Of a DNA stretch of 64,000 bases, positions 6,001 through 44,786 are shown piece by piece (position 1 is the first letter of the stretch; every line of letters begins with the position of its first letter). The notes beneath the pieces are model-generated. The model saw only the letters and a list, made by a program, of their open reading frames with translations. It made no database searches and was not told the origin of the DNA. Source of the stretch: an uncultured Clostridia bacterium (GTDB lineage Bacteria > Bacillota > Clostridia > Christensenellales > UBA1242); assembly GCA_944380265.1 (NCBI GenBank), contig CALWGY010000004.1:44769-108768 (forward strand), read 5' to 3'. A program made the position numbers and the translations under genes.

Positions 6001-9000
6001 CCAGCTTCATCACGTTCAACAACTTCATAATAACCTCTGCCTTCGGTGAACACTAATGATGCTGGCAATTTTCCATCCAAGTCGTAAGTTCTAACTGAAA
6101 AACTTGGGTTGGATTCCGAAAACCTTATGTGGTTTGTGTTTCCTTCTTCATAATAGTTTTCATCATCTGGTGTGTAGGTTTTGTAATATTCAGGGAAGTC
6201 AACATCTTCATTTTTAGCACTTAATCTTCTAACATAAAGTTGAGTTGAATCTAAAACACCGCCAAGATTTTCGTTTTGTATAAATTCAAAATTTTCGTTA
6301 ACTGCAAAGAAGTATTGATCCATTCTTGCACTATCCAAACTTTCGCTTGCAGCAAATTTTTGATTATCTAAGTTAATTAAACTTTGATAATTATATTGTG
6401 GTTTAATTCTGTCTAGAATAATGTTAAATGTGCGTTTAAAGTAATTTTTGGTTTCTTGTCCTGGAATGTTAACAACATAATCGCTTTCGTTTCCAACATA
6501 TTGCAAAGTAACAATATATTCAATGTTTTGTGTTTTTGAAAGCAAATAATCTCTGTTGTCGCCAGTTCCACCCAAATATGCTTTGCCATTTTGCAAGTAT
6601 TCTTGTTCATCAAAAATTGTTAAAATGTAATATCCTGTTTCAGATTGTTCACCAGTTTCAGTGTCAATGCTGTCAGGAACAAATGTTAAAATGTCATCTG
6701 AACTTGAACTTGTTCCATTAAATATTGTGGTGGTTGAACCATTAACTTTTCGTTCAACCAAAATTGTTGTTGGGTCAACTTCGGCACGATATTGATCATC
6801 ATTTTTTCTAAATCTAAACCTTAATGAATCGTTGTTTAAGCTGTTAAATGTTATATTGTTTGTTGTGGTGGATTTTGCAGTTAAAAGCATGTCGCTTCTG
6901 TCTTCATCATTATATTTACTGTAATATTCACCAGTTGGACTTTCATGTGTTATTTGGAAACTAAATGTGAAACTATTGTTTACAGGGTCTTCTTTTGTTT
7001 CACTATCTAATTGTGATGTTCTGTTATCTGAATTATCATAAATTGTTACGTTATATGTAGATTCATTAACAAATCTTAAACTGTTATATCCGTTGTTTTG
7101 GGTTATTGTTACATATGATGAATTTATAATTGTTTCGTCGCCTGTATTGTCAATAACAATGTTGTTGTCGGATGTGGTTATTTTATATTTCAAATTAAAG
7201 TTTGTGCTGTTTTCTGTGCTGATTGTTGAAACATAATTTGAAATATCACCACTGCTTGTAACATCTGTTGATTGAGTTAGTGTTACGCGTGAATTATATT
7301 TATCAAATGGCACATAGAAATTAATTGGTAGTTTGTTACTGTTAAAAATTGTGTCTGATGCAAAAGCAATGTATTGTTGAATTTGCAAAGCAGTGTAGTA
7401 GGTTTCATAATTTCCAAGTGTGTTAGGATTTGAAAAGTTGAAAATTAATCCAGAACCTGTTTCATAAAGCATATTTGAACGGGTGGTTTGATAAATGTTT
7501 GCATCTTCAACTGATGGGTCAATTTCAATAATGCCATTCCTGTCAACATAATAAACGTAATATCTAATAACGCTATCATATTGATAATCGCCACCTTCTT
7601 TTGCTTCATATTCACGTTTAATAACATACATTCCAGGCCTTGTTACAATTGAACTGCCATCACTAACAGGGTTAATTACTTCTGTTACTGCTCTGTCTAA
7701 TTGAGGTTCACCATTTTCGGAAACTGTTAAGTTTGAAACTGCAAGACTTCTGTTTTCAATTGAAGGAGTTTTTGCAAATGGATATTTTGGATATGGAACA
7801 CCATTTTGTATTGATTGTGTGTAATCGCCAATGTATGTGTTATCTTCCGAACCTGTGTTTGTGTTAATTGTTATGTAACTAGATGGGTCATAATCGTAAT
7901 AAGTGTAGGTTACACTTTTAACATAATAATCAGAATCTGGGTCGCCCGGCAAATAGGTAAACCTTAATTGTGTGGCAGAACTTGTTCCTTCAATTAATGA
8001 AACAAGTTCGGGATCCTCAGGGAAAGTTCCATATGCAATGCCTTGGGCATTATCTAGGAACATTCTAATAAAACTGCTTCTAATGTTGCTTTTTGCAATG
8101 TTTGTTGCACTTGTTATGTGGGAAGCATCGGTTATGGAATAAGTGTAAATTTTGTTGTCGCCAGAAAAGAATGTTTGAATTTGAGTTGCATTTTCTGGTG
8201 CAACAGGGTAGATGTTAACACTGTTTCTAAATGATGAATTTTCTAAAACTAAAGTTTCTGTTTTTGTTGCACCGTTTGTTGTGTCGGTGTAAGTAACATT
8301 AAATTTGTTAATTGGAACACATAAGTAATAAACATTATCAATAAGTTTGAACAAATCTGGTTCGTTATCAATAATTTTTTGAAGTTCTGCGTTGTCAATA
8401 ATTTCGTTTTGAACAAGGGCATCAACCTTAATTCCTTTGTAATCGCCCCATGTTAGTTTGGCTTCTTTTGTTACAATGCCATAAGGGTTGTCAATTGGGT
8501 CAACTTCTGGTGTTTGTGCATCAGAATCAACAACAACATAAGGTTTGCTTAAATCATAAATAATATATTTTGTTGCTGTGTTTCCAGCTTCATCTGCCAT
8601 GTTGAAAATGTAAATATAAGATTTTTCATCTAAAAATGCATTATCACCCGAAACATTGTTTGAAGCAATGGAAGCATAATTTAGGTTGTAAATGTTGCCA
8701 CTGCTCATATTTTTAGAGTCAATTTGAAACTCGTTTTCAATAACAAGTTCTGAGTTTAAATTTTTAATTGTGCCAGCACTGTTGTTTGATGAATATGGAA
8801 TTTTGTAATAAATAGTTCTAATTGCTGCACCACTTGCTTTTTGTGAGTAGGTTAATGTGAATGGCTGGTTAATAATTGATGAGTTGTTAAAGTTAACTTG
8901 ATTTGGGTCGGTTACAATAACATAGTTGTAACTTCCAGAACTTGAAACATTACTTCTATAAATTGGCCTAATCATAATGTCGCTAATAGGGGTGGTGTCA

Positions 9001-13919: not shown

Positions 13920-13946
13920 AGTTAAAAATAAGTAATATTTTAACAT

Positions 13947-13980
13947 AAAAAGCATGCAGTTTTTGCGTGCTTTTTTGTTT
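13947..13980 (+). terminator. Intrinsic terminator after the pilin-like gene
   Basis: Stem AGCATGC/GCGTGCT (one G-U pair) followed by TTTTTT. Confidence 0.7.
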
Positions 13981-14672
13981 TTTAAAATAAGTAAGAAAAA
14001 TGGCTTTAATTGGTGGTTTTTAATTAATCATTTTTAATAAAATATTTGCATTAATTGTGTTTTAATAGTTAATTTTTTAATAATTGATTAAAAAATTGTT
14101 TAATTAAAATTTAAAAATTTGTTTAAATAAACAATTAAAATTTTAGTTTAAAATTAAAGTTTTTTTAAAATTAAATTTTTAATATTTTCAATGTTTGACT
14201 ATATGATCTTTTAGTGGCGTATGTAAAATAAACAAAAATTTAGTTAATATTGTAATTTATTTTAAAGTTTAAATTACCCAAAATTAGATTAACAAAAAAT
14301 TTAGTAATTCCATAAAAATTTAATTTTTAAAATGATTAACAAAAAAGATAATTTAAAATGATGGCAGTTTTATTGTTAAAAATTGATATAAAAGCAAAAT
14401 TGAAATGAAATTTTTAATTATTATTAATAAATTGCACATGCTATATTAACGAAAATATATATAAAATGATAGATATTTATAACATTTTATTGATTTTTGC
14501 CGTTTTATGTAGTAAAATTGAAACAAGGATAAAAGTTTTAGGCAGAAAAAATGATTTACAATTTGTTGTTTTAAATTTTGAAAAATTAATTTAATTTTTA
14601 CTTCGCATAATGTTCCTTATGGGAAGTGAGTAAAAAAGACAACAAAAAAATTGCTTTTTGGAGGAAGGATTT

Positions 14673-34799: not shown

Positions 34800-34932
34800 G
34801 TACCATAAAGAGTGTGCGAGGGACAGCCCCGTTGACCACACAGCAACCTGGAACGTAATGTTTTAAGGTGCTAATGGCTGTTCGATGGAAAAAATATTAA
34901 CATTTAAATCCCATCGAAAGATGGGATTTTTT
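34800..34932 (+). promoter_or_regulatory. SAM-I (S-box) riboswitch with terminator expression platform
   Basis: The conserved core AGAG..GAGGGAC.GCCCC.UUGA..CAGCAACC...GGUGCUAA is present. UUCGAUGG (34881-34888) can pair with CCAUCGAA (34911-34918) as an antiterminator, or CCCAUC/GAUGGG plus a U-run forms the terminator. The element lies directly upstream of metK. Confidence 0.8.
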
Positions 34933-40611: not shown

Positions 40612-40954
40612 TGAAATTAAACGAGGAGAATTATATTATGCTGATTTAAGCCCTGTTGTTGGAAGTGAACAAGGGGGAGTTAGACCTGTGTTAATTGTGC
40701 AGAACGATGTTGGAAACAAGTTTAGTCCAACCGTTATTGCAGCGGCAATAACAAGTCAAATTAACAAAGCAAAAATTCCAACACACATTGAAGTTAAGGC
40801 TAGTGATGTTGGGTTGCCCAAAGACTCGGTGGTGCTACTTGAACAATTACGAACTCTTGACAAACGCAGGTTAAAGGAAAAAATTGGAGAATTGGACATA
40901 AAAAAAATGAAAATGGTTGACAGTGCTTTGTTAATAAGTTTGGGGTTTAACTAA
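40601..40954 (+). CDS. mazF: MazF/EndoA (PemK-family) mRNA interferase toxin
   Basis: [77 protein letters not shown] is very close to Bacillus EndoA. An alternative upstream ATG exists at 40583. Confidence 0.9.
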
Positions 40955-40984
40955 AAGGCAATCTTAATTGGATTGCTTTTTTTG
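40953..40984. terminator. Intrinsic terminator after mazF
   Basis: Stem GCAATC/GATTGC, loop TTAATTG, then TTTTTTT. Confidence 0.75.
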
Positions 40985-41030
40985 TTTTAAAAATTGGAAT
41001 TGAACAAGCCTTAATTTGTGGTTGGCAAAT

Positions 41031-41197
41031 TGTGTTGTATGTGGAAAAGGTGAGTAAAAACTTTTAGTGGGGTAAGCCCTGCGATGTTAAAATTTAACAT
41101 CGGGTAAATTTTAACTTTTGCTTTCGCAAAATGGCACAAGGGGTTGTGCCAGAGCAGGGCGGAAACCTTAAATTTACAATAACTTTATAATAACACG
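41031..41197 (+). ncRNA. Unclassified structured element, copy B (closing helix P0 plus four-way junction P1-P4)
   Basis: P0 is 41031-41040/41187-41197. P1 is 41076-41082/41154-41160 (GCCCTGC/GCAGGGC). P2 is 41086-41096/41105-41115. P3 is 41116-41121/41126-41131. P4 is 41133-41139/41144-41150. P2 and P4 match copy A in sequence, while P1 has a different sequence but still pairs. Confidence 0.5.
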
Positions 41198-41325: not shown

Positions 41326-41354
41326 ATTGCAATTTGATTTGTTTGGTGTTACAA
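41326..41354 (+). promoter_or_regulatory. Sigma-A promoter for the 309-aa ORFan gene
   Basis: TTGCAA, a 17-nt spacer ending in TGT (extended -10), then TACAAT. The start codon is 26 nt downstream. Confidence 0.55.
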
Positions 41355-41379
41355 TTTAGTATCAAAAAGGTGGTATATT

Positions 41380-42309
41380 ATGGAATTTGTAACAAATGAA
41401 TATAAAGAATATTTCAAAAATGCTCATGAAACTTTAAAACAACTAGACTCAGTTGCATATGAAAACGGATTGGGTCATTTGTTTACTGAAAAAGAATTAA
41501 GGAAATTTAAATACGCTTCCGAAGTTGACAGGATTAATGAATATGCATATCCGGTTATGCAACCAACAATAGACAAAATTATTGCTTTTGCACAAGATTC
41601 ATTTTTAAGTGAAAATCCACAAGTTAAAAATATGATAACACAACTTGTGCAATATAAAAGTTTTAAACGTGGCGGAAACAAAAACAGCAGGCAAGACAGG
41701 GGTGCAGTTGAAATTTTGAAAGATAACATTAAACAATATCTTGAAAATCCAACACAACTTCCAAAAGCAACTGTTAAAAAGAAAGACCCTGTTAAAAAGA
41801 ATATTAATCAATCAAAACTTAAAGAACCAAGAGTTTTCACTTTAACCGATAAAGATGAACTTGTTAAACCAAACGAACAAACTTGGCAAGCGTTAAGAGC
41901 TTTGGAAAGAGCATGGGCAACCTTAATTAAAGCAAACATTGAACACAGAATTGACAATCAAAACCCAACAGAAAATTGGGCTGACAGAATGCATGTTTCT
42001 TGGTTTGAAGAACTTCAAGCATATAAAGATGCAAAAGTGTTACTTAAAAAAGATGATGACAAAATTAGAGAAAAAGCAAGCACTTTGGCAAAGCAATTTG
42101 AATCTTACGTAAAAACAAAAACAACTCCACTTGATGCTGCAAGCACGCATGCAAAATCAAGACGTAAATTTTTTGCTTTAAAAGGTAACATTAAAAAAGC
42201 AGTTAGAAAACAAGAACAAATTGAACAACAACTAGTTGAACAAGGCAAAAATTTGGAAGAAAGATTAACTGAAACAACTCCAATTAAAGATGAAGGCAAA
42301 AATAAATAA
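41380..42309 (+). CDS. 309-aa Lys/Glu-rich soluble ORFan
   Basis: An RBS (AAGGTGG) is present. No signal peptide, TM helix or recognisable motif was seen. Confidence 0.6.
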   Translation: MEFVTNEYKEYFKNAHETLKQLDSVAYENGLGHLFTEKELRKFKYASEVDRINEYAYPVMQPTIDKIIAFAQDSFLSENPQVKNMITQLVQYKSFKRGGNKNSRQDRGAVEILKDNIKQYLENPTQLPKATVKKKDPVKKNINQSKLKEPRVFTLTDKDELVKPNEQTWQALRALERAWATLIKANIEHRIDNQNPTENWADRMHVSWFEELQAYKDAKVLLKKDDDKIREKASTLAKQFESYVKTKTTPLDAASTHAKSRRKFFALKGNIKKAVRKQEQIEQQLVEQGKNLEERLTETTPIKDEGKNK

Positions 42310-42500
42310 CAACAAAATAAAATTGAAGGTAAATGGTAAATAATTACCTTCAATTTTAGTGTTTAAATTAGAAAAATTCACTATTGACTATGCACAACAA
42401 TTTTGGTATAATTTAGTAAGAAATATTATGGTTAATATTTCTAAAAAAAAATTAAAAAATGTTTTACTTTATGTTGGTGGCACATAAAGGAGGGTTAAAT

Positions 42501-44786
42501 ATGGCAAATGTAACTTTAACACCAGTTCAAGTAATTGCAATTAAACAAGCAATTAGAAGAATTAGTACACAAACTCATATTTCTATCAATGAACTTAATG
42601 GTTATTTATCATCTGGTTTAATGCCTGATGTTGTTTCTCAGGCACTTTTAAATATATATAAAGTTCCAAAATTGGAAGATATTCCTGCTGTGGCAAAAAC
42701 CACAGTTGTAACTGTTGAAAAAGTTGCGCAAATTTATGCAGCTGTTCAAGAGGCAAAAGAACTTGCTTCCGCTGCTCCAAGGAAATATTTAACTGGTGCT
42801 GAACAAATGGCGGTTGTTACAACCATTGGTAAATTAAAAACATATATTAATGAATTAGAAACATTGCGTGCAGAAATTGAAACAAAGCAAAAACTTGCAA
42901 CAAATCCTGCTGATAAACGTAACTTACAAGACCAAAAAGCAGCAATTACAAAACGTATTAAAGCAAGTACAAAAGTTTATGGTGTTTTGTTGGAAGCTAA
43001 AAAGGGTAGTGTGCTTGAAGATGTTTATAATTGGTTGTTTGTAAAATCTGGAATAAAAAATGAAAAAGGCAAACAACTAAATCGTGCATTAGATGATTTT
43101 CATGCAGCACCAGATAAATCTTCTTTACCAACAGGAAACCAGGCACACAAATTAATTAATGAACTTGGCAGAGTTGCTGGTCGTGGATTTGTTTCACCAA
43201 ACCCAAATCCTAATCCAAACCCAAATCCTAATCCAAATCCAAATCCAAACCCTAACCCAAACCCTAACCCAAATCCAAACCCAAACCCAAATCCTAACCC
43301 AAACCCAAACCCAAATCCAAATCCAAACCCAAATCCAAATCCAAACCCTAATCCTAACCCAAACCCAAACCCAAATCCTAATCCAAACCCTAATCCTAAT
43401 CCAAACCCTAATCCAAACCCTAATCCTAATCCAAACCCTAATCCTAATCCAAACCCTAATCCAAACCCTAATCCTAATCCAAATCCTAATCCAAACCCTA
43501 ATCCAAACCCAAACCCTAATCCTAACCCAAACCCTAATCCTAATCCAAACCCTAATCCTAATCCAAACCCTAATCCAAACCCTAATCCTAACCCAAACCC
43601 AAATCCTAACCCTAGCCCAACTACTCCAGATTTTAAATATAAAACATTGCATGTAAGCAAGGGCAGAAGGTTTGTAAACTGGCTTGGAAAACACTGGTTG
43701 TTACTTGGCACACTTGTTGCAGCAGCAGGACTTACCGCAGCAGCATTTTTAGGACCAGCAGGTATGTTTGCAGCAACAGCTGTTGGCAGATTTGCTTTAT
43801 ATAATGTTGTAACTTTAGGTAGTATTGCTGTTGGTGCTAATGTGTTTAAATATTTATTCTTCCGTCGTCACAGACAAGCAGCAACTGACCAAGGTCATTT
43901 GTTAAGAAGAGAAGCAAAAATTCAAAGAAAATTAAGAAGACTTGAAAGATATAGACAAAAAATTAACACATTAGATCAAAAAATTGAATCATACATGAGT
44001 TTAGGAAAAACAAATGGTTTAAAACGTTACAAAAAAGCAATTAAACGTTTGCAAAAGCAACAAGCTAAATTGGACAAAAAAATTGGCAAAGATTCTAAAT
44101 TTATTGGTCGTGAACTTGAAGATAAAGATGCAAAAAAACCTTACGGAAAAGTAAAACGTGCATTAAAAATTTTTGTTGGACATGCTCCAATGGCATATTA
44201 TGTTGACAGGCACAACAAACATATGGATATTTTGGCAGATAAAACCAATAAGTCAAAATTTAAAGATAATAGGCTTGATGGAAACTTAACTGATGAAATG
44301 TTCCGTTGGCATATGTTCCGTCGTAGATATATTGAGGATGCTAAGAAAAGAGAAGCAAGTGCTGCTGATCGTGAAGTGAAGGCAACAGCAGATGGACAAA
44401 ATGCTTTAGCAAAAGCCTTTGCAAGCCATAAAGCAAAGGTTGCGGAAACTCAACAAAGAGTTAGAGATGTAAATCCAGACGGAGCACATCTTGGTGAACC
44501 TGCAAAAGATTTAGTTTTGCATGACACAACATCAACACATTTTGAACCAGATTCAGAAGAAAAAAGAAAGGGTAAAAGAAAAGCAGAAGAAATTGAACGT
44601 ATCATTCATAACGGCAGAGATGCTATGGGTGGATATTCAGGAAAAACTGCGGTTGTTTCTAAATATTTCAAAAACAGAAGTGAAGATATTGCAGCAAAAA
44701 CAGAAATTGCTGGGGACGCAAATGAAGCTGAAGAAATTAAAAAAAGAAATACTCCAATAACCCCTTCTTCTCACAGAACAATGTAA
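42501..44786 (+). CDS. 761-aa membrane protein: helical N-domain, P(NP)69 tract, TM cluster, basic coiled-coil C-domain
   Basis: AAGGAGGG RBS before ATG 42501. The Asn-Pro tract is 43197-43613. The hydrophobic cluster is WLLLGTLVAAAGLTAAAFLGPAGMFAATAVGRFALYNVVTLGSIAVGANVF. The C-terminal ~330 aa is rich in Lys/Arg. Confidence 0.7.
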   Translation: MANVTLTPVQVIAIKQAIRRISTQTHISINELNGYLSSGLMPDVVSQALLNIYKVPKLEDIPAVAKTTVVTVEKVAQIYAAVQEAKELASAAPRKYLTGAEQMAVVTTIGKLKTYINELETLRAEIETKQKLATNPADKRNLQDQKAAITKRIKASTKVYGVLLEAKKGSVLEDVYNWLFVKSGIKNEKGKQLNRALDDFHAAPDKSSLPTGNQAHKLINELGRVAGRGFVSPNPNPNPNPNPNPNPNPNPNPNPNPNPNPNPNPNPNPNPNPNPNPNPNPNPNPNPNPNPNPNPNPNPNPNPNPNPNPNPNPNPNPNPNPNPNPNPNPNPNPNPNPNPNPNPNPNPNPNPNPNPNPNPNPNPNPNPNPNPSPTTPDFKYKTLHVSKGRRFVNWLGKHWLLLGTLVAAAGLTAAAFLGPAGMFAATAVGRFALYNVVTLGSIAVGANVFKYLFFRRHRQAATDQGHLLRREAKIQRKLRRLERYRQKINTLDQKIESYMSLGKTNGLKRYKKAIKRLQKQQAKLDKKIGKDSKFIGRELEDKDAKKPYGKVKRALKIFVGHAPMAYYVDRHNKHMDILADKTNKSKFKDNRLDGNLTDEMFRWHMFRRRYIEDAKKREASAADREVKATADGQNALAKAFASHKAKVAETQQRVRDVNPDGAHLGEPAKDLVLHDTTSTHFEPDSEEKRKGKRKAEEIERIIHNGRDAMGGYSGKTAVVSKYFKNRSEDIAAKTEIAGDANEAEEIKKRNTPITPSSHRTM
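43197..43613 (+). repeat. 417-nt imperfect hexanucleotide repeat encoding P(NP)69
   Basis: AAC/AAT and CCA/CCT codons are interleaved irregularly. Higher-order units such as AATCCAAACCCTAATCCT recur. Confidence 0.95.

Follow-up and report, generated by a model that had tools for sequence, protein, structure and literature searches.

The closest described counterpart of the element analysed here is bcr1, an intergenic repeat without coding capacity from the Bacillus cereus group of the Firmicutes (PMC3184786). bcr1 adopts a branched, "cruciform-like" structure of independent stem-loops closed by a long stem, its pairing is kept by compensatory changes, and its distribution is not conserved among close relatives (PMC3184786). 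A compensated branched structure with a non-conserved distribution was also found for an intergenic, non-coding element that is present in two copies, A and B, in a 64,000-nucleotide (nt) stretch of DNA (contig CALWGY010000004.1; hereafter the window), a chromosomal segment with a G+C content of about 31% that derives from a spore-forming, uncultured bacterium of the Clostridia. The element is a lineage-specific structured repeat and not a control element linked to promoters or to the type IV secretion system (T4SS) genes of the window. It is likened to bcr1 by structure, not by sequence. bcr1 has two stem-loops, many copies and a defined 5-bp direct repeat and has been shown to be transcribed, whereas the window element has three stem-loops, two known copies and perfect stems without wobble pairs.

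Repetitive extragenic palindromic (REP) sequences, bacterial interspersed mosaic elements and REP doublets forming hairpins (REPINs) are also short palindromic intergenic repeats, which evolve within lineages and can act as terminators or stabilisers; movement in the form of folded single strands of DNA has been proposed for REP elements (PMC3116915, PMC3733652). However, REPs are single hairpins of 20-40 nt or doublets with a GTAG or CGTC tag, which occur in tens to hundreds of copies with a cognate gene for a REP-associated tyrosine transposase (RAYT). The window element is a nested four-helix junction of ~90 nt without either tag, and no Y1 transposase or RAYT is encoded among the annotated genes of the window. 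TD-1 and TD-2 from Treponema denticola (RF03162, CL00124) are species-restricted intergenic elements with 28-36 copies and adjacent hairpins with variable, modular stems, whose instances overlap on opposite strands and whose function is unknown (PMC1950547). In contrast to the window element, the TD-2 model consists of three consecutive hairpins without a closing helix, and it comes from a different phylum. TD-2 aligned to copy A with 17.8 bits (E = 3.4) and did not match copy B. At the gathering and E-value thresholds, no Rfam family was found for either copy, and the best matches were at chance level (E = 0.35 or worse).

Structure of the two copies and maintenance of the fold

Copy B (core at 41076-41160, plus strand) forms a four-way junction in which the closing helix P1 (41076-41082/41154-41160) encloses the hairpins P2 (41086-41096/41105-41115), P3 (41116-41121/41126-41131) and P4 (41132-41139/41144-41151). 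Copy A (core at 20479-20566, plus strand) shows the same junction, with helices of 11 bp (P1), 12 bp (P2), 7 bp (P3) and 8 bp (P4) and a single unpaired junction base. Both cores are ~90 nt long, and between 1 and 5 junction bases are left unpaired. A covariance model built from the two copies and run with filters off (model R1) scored copy B at 106 bits and copy A at 112.7 bits, and copy B was also supported by folding and by a descriptor scan. The helices P1 to P4 proposed for copy B in the first-pass annotation, a model's reading of the sequence alone that placed P4 at 41133-41139/41144-41150, are all present in the sequence and in the predicted fold.

RNA folding gave z-scores of -4.9 for copy B and -5.5 for copy A, and DNA folding gave z-scores of -7.7 to -8.6 for the two copies, with both strands producing one junction. 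No junction with at least 26 pairs was found in 1.28 Mb of Markov-random sequence, compared with 38 pairs in copy A and 32 in copy B. These three results show that the four-way junction of the two copies is real and far beyond chance. The 70 core pairs of A and B include no wobble pair, and neither copy was discovered through the perfect-pair scan described below.

An alignment of the two copies revealed that all 30 common pairs form and that all of them are Watson-Crick pairs. Two changes between A and B are compensatory (A-T to C-G in P1, and T-A to C-G at the inner pair of P3), no stem position carries an uncompensated change, and nearly all loop bases differ. In a slid-partner control, 100% of the cells paired in register versus 33-52% when slid, while a shuffle control on the A/B pairing gave 118/500, a comparison in which two sequences cannot reach significance. 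The P2 and P4 patterns each occur twice in the window with none expected, which confirms that the P2 core and P4 are identical in sequence between the copies, as first noticed. The alignment likewise upheld the differences in all loops and the variation in P3. P1, which had been taken for unrelated sequences, is in fact GCACTGC in one copy and GCCCTGC in the other, identical at six of seven pairs with the seventh compensated. The comparison of A and B revealed no conserved unpaired base for binding of a ligand or partner. The covariance-model search that had been proposed retrieved only A and B in the window, and model R1 found no third copy in the 10-kb extensions on either side, which brings the examined sequence of this species to ~84 kb.

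The evolution of the fold can be followed in the close strain L114, in which the 309-aa gene next to copy B is 97% identical to that of the window. L114 carries seven substitutions in the 90-nt core versus three in the 130 nt upstream, and all changes in the core fall in loops, linkers or helix ends. P2 and P3 are extended by a pair each, P4 is shortened by one or two pairs, and P1 is remodelled to GCCCTG-C-GCTG / CAGC-A-CAGGGC. The predicted fold nevertheless preserves the junction (-41.8 versus -38.2 kcal/mol for copy B), indicating that the core evolves faster than its flanks while its shape is held. Thus, pairing is actively maintained in the face of fast change in loops and helix ends, and the earlier proposal of selection on pairing is supported by two compensatory changes, the lack of uncompensated stem changes, saturated loops and the junction kept in L114.

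The outer helix P0 shows a different behaviour. Its 5' strand (41031-41040, plus strand, TGTGTTGTAT) is conserved in L114, but its 3' strand (41187-41197, plus strand, ATAATAACACG) lies within the 52 nt that follow P1 (41164-41215), which are replaced in L114 by ~80 nt of unrelated AT-rich sequence (about 525-600). The first reading of P0 was correct on the pairing, which exists in both copies, on the bulged A and on the two G-T pairs of copy B, all of which are in the sequence; however, since the 3' strand is lost in L114 and the junction is kept, P0 is no conserved helix. The breakpoint in L114 falls exactly at the junction base, directly past the 3' end of P1. Copy A alone is followed by an additional hairpin (20574-20615, plus strand) formed by AGTTGTATGC and GCCTACAACT, and then by ACTTCCAATGA, an 11-mer that matches the XerC arm of dif at 8 of 11 bases and represents a weak lead only.

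Several other assignments were considered for the structure. A tRNA-like cloverleaf does not fit the arm sizes and loops, and ARAGORN detected no tRNA or transfer-messenger RNA between 20300 and 41400. An integron attC-like site was rejected because the GTT/AAC boxes have reversed polarity and are absent from copy B, and a sigma-54 promoter read from TGGCAC has no -12 element by eye. There is no T-run past P1 in either copy, as an intrinsic terminator would have.

Empty loci in related species and same-shape junctions elsewhere

Copy B is located between the intrinsic terminator of mazF (40953-40988, plus strand), a hairpin with a T-run that belongs to the upstream gene, and the promoter of the 309-aa gene (41327-41355, plus strand; TTGCAA, 17 nt, TG-n-TACAAT). 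In five related species the gene order is recX, acpS, 355-aa gene, mazE, mazF, 309-aa gene, large gene and ileS. The spacer between mazF and the 309-aa gene has 425 nt in the window versus 133-162 nt in these species (L116, L015, L016, L019 and L022), all of which lack the element and keep the promoter (GGGTATTGCAA..TGnTACAAT). Copy A is found in a similar position, between the intrinsic terminator of a VirB4-like gene (20323-20351, plus strand) and the promoter of a gene for a 1611-aa protein (20727-20755, plus strand; TTGAAT, 17 nt, TG-n-TATAAT). Here the spacer has 476 nt versus 226-230 nt in two species, L025 and L027, whose VirB4 proteins are 88% and 94% identical to that of the window; both lack the element and retain the promoter (ATTTTATATTGAA..TGTGATAwAAT). 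In the nearest species (VirB4 94% identical), a single scaffold spans both loci, and both are empty. Model R1 found no window-type copy in 1.11 Mb of sequence around VirB4 homologues from 80 metagenome contigs. The VirB4-like protein itself shares 62-99% identity with the best 120 of its 470 homologues, and proteins identical to those of the window were found only in ENA and Logan metagenome assemblies.

The short empty spacers of the relatives point to a lineage-specific gain, which looks recent. By parsimony, the element would have been acquired in this lineage at two unrelated loci, each time between an existing terminator and an existing promoter. Since the promoters and genes are conserved without the element, they do not depend on it. 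The first-pass annotation had linked the element to strong promoters of ORFan genes and to the T4SS genes. This link does not hold, as relatives keep the promoters and genes without the element and copy B lies among housekeeping genes. Each copy does follow an intrinsic terminator, as had been stated, but P1 is separated from the -35 box by 160 nt in copy A, 166 nt in copy B and 190 nt in L114, so the spacing is not fixed. The downstream genes are clade genes without a Pfam domain rather than ORFans; for the 309-aa protein, 18 homologues with 36-100% identity were found, and synteny is conserved. No homology was found between the proteins encoded downstream of A and of B. In annotation, the element should not be labelled a regulator of the downstream genes, nor should those genes be labelled ORFans.

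The T4SS-like cluster (3072-25619) encodes a 2603-aa protein, a VirD4-type coupling protein, a T4SS pilin, an 813-aa protein, the VirB4-like ATPase and the 1611-aa protein. It is syntenic in the relatives with 88% and 94% identical VirB4, where it adjoins housekeeping genes, and VirB4 homologues with identities as low as 43% occur widely across metagenomes. The cluster looks like a chromosomal feature of the clade rather than an integrative and conjugative element (ICE).

Junctions of the same shape were found in other genomes. Among species-representative genomes, a pattern combining the P2 hairpin with GGCACAA matched seven loci in one AT-rich metagenome-assembled genome, CASFQL01, labelled "uncultured Christensenella sp.", plus one chance match elsewhere. 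Searches with the model and the descriptor scan identified eight perfect junctions in 56 kb of CASFQL01, with 39-43 pairs each and linkers of 0-1 nt. Five of these are dispersed (L009 1795-1888 and 7311-7408; L013 4594-4689 and 7061-7163; L007 7739-7832) and have in common a P1 of GGnCTTTGTGC / GCACAAAGnCC and similar arms (GTAAAAATTTT, GTGAAATTTTAA and CAAAAGT). The genes beside them have housekeeping roles (SpoIVB, Sua5, LepA and a P-type ATPase). Several of the five are followed by T-runs and are terminator-like (e.g. L009 7311 and L007 7739). The best Rfam match of such a sister element was TD-2 against L013 7074-7156, with 33.2 bits, which is under the gathering score of 48.7.

Other junctions have unrelated arms. 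In the related species L015 (309-aa protein 61% identical), a junction with quite different arms (1905-1983) is present in the gap between the terminator of the 355-aa gene and mazE, a site that is empty in the window. About seven further junctions, including those in L068 and L096/L105, were detected in the 1.11 Mb around VirB4 homologues, and none of them is of the window type. The G+C-rich junction of L068 (20296-20391, 42 pairs) starts 10 nt past a stop codon and is followed by a T-run, and thus occupies the place of a terminator; its middle arm alone is a classic bidirectional terminator. The weakest matches, in L016 and at 14060-14140 of the window, may be paired terminators or chance. 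The junction shape recurs with unrelated arms at intergenic sites that are not syntenic. Genomes differ strongly in copy number, and homology among all of these junctions cannot be shown. The junction scan accepted perfect Watson-Crick pairing only, with no fewer than 6 bp in the closing helix, no fewer than 5 bp in each of three hairpins, and linkers no longer than 4 nt. The 16 confident elements contain 576 Watson-Crick pairs with no wobble pair and no internal mismatch; allowing G-T pairs adds 0-3 pairs per element, mostly noise. Of their 48 loops, 35 have 3-4 nt.

CASFQL01 also contains gene-free units of 164-167 nt in two-copy tandem arrays at seven or more chromosomal loci (L008 7500-7843; L009 3790-4140; L013 about 6700-7010; also L007, L010, L011 and L014). 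Each unit consists of a perfect junction and a fifth hairpin. Between the units there is a 28-mer, ACTTCCTAGAA TATAAA TTATGTGCTGT, which matches the dif site of Bacillus subtilis (PMC3025954) at 23 of 28 bases, including 11 of 11 in the XerC arm. At the array ends the left XerC-like arm and the TATAAA centre persist next to an unrelated right arm, a pattern that integration by exchange in the central region would give. The CASFQL01 units, unlike the window copies, resemble the dif modules of Acinetobacter plasmids and the integrative mobile elements exploiting Xer (IMEX) in being bounded by 28-bp sites, in which a 6-bp centre separates a XerC arm from a XerD arm (PMC6449649, PMC3025954). The head-to-tail arrays are as expected from repeated Xer integration, although the Xer dependence is putative. 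However, the CASFQL01 units are gene-free, ~165 nt long and chromosomal, and they occur at no fewer than seven loci instead of at one dif site or on plasmids.

The CASFQL01 units and the window copies have in common the 28-nt TTAAAATTTAA hairpin, a small A/T hairpin, the GGCACAA motif and an exact 53-nt span. The arm order of the CASFQL01 units equals that of the window copies if the junction is opened at a different arm, with a common circular order of the TTAAAATTTAA arm, the small A/T arm, the GCACAA/TTGTGC arm and a variable arm. These likenesses make a link between the window copies and the dif-flanked units suggestive, not secure.

Origin of the element and competing explanations

The explanation of copies A and B that we favour, with about even confidence, is a structured, probably mobile intergenic DNA repeat of the bcr1, REP, MITE (miniature transposable element with inverted repeats) or TD-2 kind, which is restricted to this species and non-coding. 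The constraint would act on single-stranded nucleic acid, most likely DNA, in the form of a replication single strand or a mobilisation intermediate. DNA appears more likely than RNA because both strands fold equally, wobble pairs are lacking and most loops of the wider set have the minimal 3-4 nt. Palindromic DNA also fits better than an RNA gene, as there is no common promoter, no terminator and no conserved unpaired base. Selection for folding may uphold the perfect arms, as may hairpin-templated (template-switch) correction or a combination of the two, and the extension and re-registering of arms in L114 could be explained in the same ways. Hairpin-templated correction at imperfect palindromes is a known template-switch mechanism (PMC7202029). 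Spread or movement would occur in trans, through an enzyme that recognises the folded DNA. Candidates are a Xer-type tyrosine recombinase, in view of the dif-like boundaries of the related-looking family in CASFQL01, and a HUH/Y1 transposase, as in the REP-RAYT system. Effects on adjacent genes would be incidental, and other junctions of the same shape occupy terminator positions.

Several observations weigh against a mobile DNA repeat. The ~84 kb of this species contain two copies, and these have no terminal inverted repeat in common beyond P1 and P0 (inverted repeats around the core are 7-11 bp for P1 and about 10 bp for P0, whose 3' arm is missing in L114). Copy A is surrounded by a 19-nt direct repeat of 84% identity, 256 nt apart and near the extra length of the locus, as well as by CCCACAT, and copy B by the exact direct repeat TTGTTTTAAA; plausibly these repeats arose by chance in AT-rich DNA, and the termini they imply differ. 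Clear ends and a convincing duplication of the target were not found, which is the main weakness of the mobile-repeat explanation. The empty sites of the relatives are too diverged to place insertion boundaries, and the choice of insertion here over loss elsewhere rests on parsimony and is unproven. The annotated genes of the window include neither a transposase nor a recombinase. A, B and most CASFQL01 copies are co-oriented with the adjacent genes, which would suit an RNA as well, and the demand of the scan for perfect pairing accounts in part for the missing wobble pairs of the wider set. As for the dif-flanked units, their alignment with the window copies is not significant beyond the P2 hairpin, the pattern that linked them was self-chosen, and no dif-like 28-mer is present in or beside A or B, where the best match (17 of 28) is reached at dozens of places in the window. 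The first-pass annotation had considered that its reading would fail if the element belonged to a known repeat or MITE family with terminal inverted repeats and target-site duplications. The behaviour of a dispersed, non-syntenic repeat was indeed observed, but no terminal inverted repeats with target duplications are shown. Pattern scans of viral_contigs and of JGI metagenomes gave 0 matches each, and blastn in distant mode against plasmids and phages returned no match for copy A or the CASFQL01 unit.

An appreciably less probable explanation, although the strongest of the competing ones, is a structured RNA, either a stand-alone small RNA (sRNA) or a transcribed repeat of the bcr1 type, in which the junction would serve as a stability element, processing site or protein scaffold. 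The compensatory changes in P1 and P3, the fold preserved in L114, the RNA folding z-scores of -4.9 and -5.5 and the co-orientation of both copies with flanking genes are all compatible with RNA, as are the two G-T pairs in P0 of copy B, which work on the plus strand only. There are also precedents in bcr1, a comparable transcribed repeat with compensatory changes (PMC3184786), and in TD-2, a multi-hairpin candidate sRNA and the best sub-threshold Rfam match of the sister element (33.2 bits). However, A and B have no promoter-like site in common upstream and no terminator after either of them, both are located downstream of strong terminators, and no Rfam family is reached at threshold. The two strands fold equally well, with no wobble in 70 core pairs and no conserved unpaired base, while P0, the sole strand-specific helix, is lost in L114 and the nearest relatives do without the element altogether. 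The last observation bears also on a DNA regulatory or architectural site, a cruciform or regulator-bound structure that would tune the strong promoter ~160 nt downstream, which we regard as improbable. Both copies do lie upstream of strong extended -10 promoters (160 and 166 nt), and the sister junction L013 4594-4689 lies just upstream of a promoter-like site; perfect palindromes with short loops favour cruciform extrusion, and P2 and P4 are sequence-identical in the two copies. Nevertheless, the same promoters and genes are found without the element in all related species examined, the spacing grows to 190 nt in L114, the genes downstream of A and B are mutually unrelated, and sister elements occur at varied positions, some directly past stop codons.

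Least probable of all, and in our view very unlikely, is a single-stranded DNA element tied to the T4SS, such as a single-strand origin, a primosome or primase site, or a Frpo-like promoter in DNA transfer. Copy A adjoins the VirB4-like gene, either strand folds strongly when single, and the plus strand of P2 carries an extended -10-like TGTTAAAAT in A, B and L114. This box has no paired -35 box, and no single hairpin rebuilds the paired -35/-10 arrangement. A mobile setting is lacking as well: neither a relaxase nor an oriT nor the surroundings of a plasmid or ICE are seen in the window, plasmid and phage records show no similarity, the cluster is chromosomal in relatives without the element (VirB4 43-94% identical), and copy B is situated between mazEF and ileS in housekeeping surroundings.

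If A and B are indeed a mobile DNA repeat, then a family of structured repeats without a match in the searched libraries exists in gut Clostridia that are known only from metagenomes, and it is defined by its shape, a perfect four-way junction, rather than by sequence. Such elements break assemblies and are mistakable for sRNAs or riboswitches. They can create terminators and shift promoter spacing, and they mark recent change between close strains. A bolder and rather doubtful extension would unite the window copies and the CASFQL01 units in one undescribed class of gene-free mobile modules of ~100-200 nt with perfect junctions, which would move as a folded strand or circle via Xer-type recombination. 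Such a class would account for the dif-like ends, the tandem arrays and the circularly permuted arm order. The dif-flanked tandem version, if true, would extend Xer-dependent mobility to tiny gene-free chromosomal modules.

Other features of the window

Beyond the T4SS-like cluster, the window encodes SleB, YpeB, a Rho-like gene, fba, gapA, mnmA, metK with an S-adenosylmethionine (SAM) riboswitch, recX, acpS, mazEF, ileS, groESL, tig, clpPX and tRNA genes. The SAM riboswitch is located upstream of metK (34800-34927), five plus-strand tRNA genes are clustered at 59006-59460, and one minus-strand tRNA gene is found at 62677-62756. The Rho-like gene (1855-2946) encodes a 363-aa protein with Rho N-terminal and RNA-binding domains, for which no ATPase domain match was returned.

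The 309-aa gene downstream of copy B (41380-42309, plus strand) has no Pfam domain and is clade-wide. The large gene past it (42459-44786) encodes a product of 711-813 aa across strains and species, with a repetitive acidic/proline-like middle (especially 43100-43711) and a weak Trypan_PARP match. In this region both strands contain long open reading frames, and the GC skew is locally reversed.

Within the T4SS-like cluster, the pilin gene and the 813-aa gene are separated by a spacer of almost pure A+T (13920-14657), which has 738 nt versus 286 nt in the nearest species (L027). It contains the AT-only four-way-junction candidate at 14060-14140 (28 pairs, long linkers), which may be chance and which, together with the match in L016, was set aside as likely chance or paired terminators. 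A palindrome with perfect arms, ACTTCGCATAA TGTTCC TTATGGGAAGT (14600-14627), precedes the ribosome-binding site of the 813-aa gene by ~30 nt. This palindrome, which the corresponding spacer of L025 and L027 lacks, is not at a GC-skew switch and resembles a dif/recombinase site or an operator.

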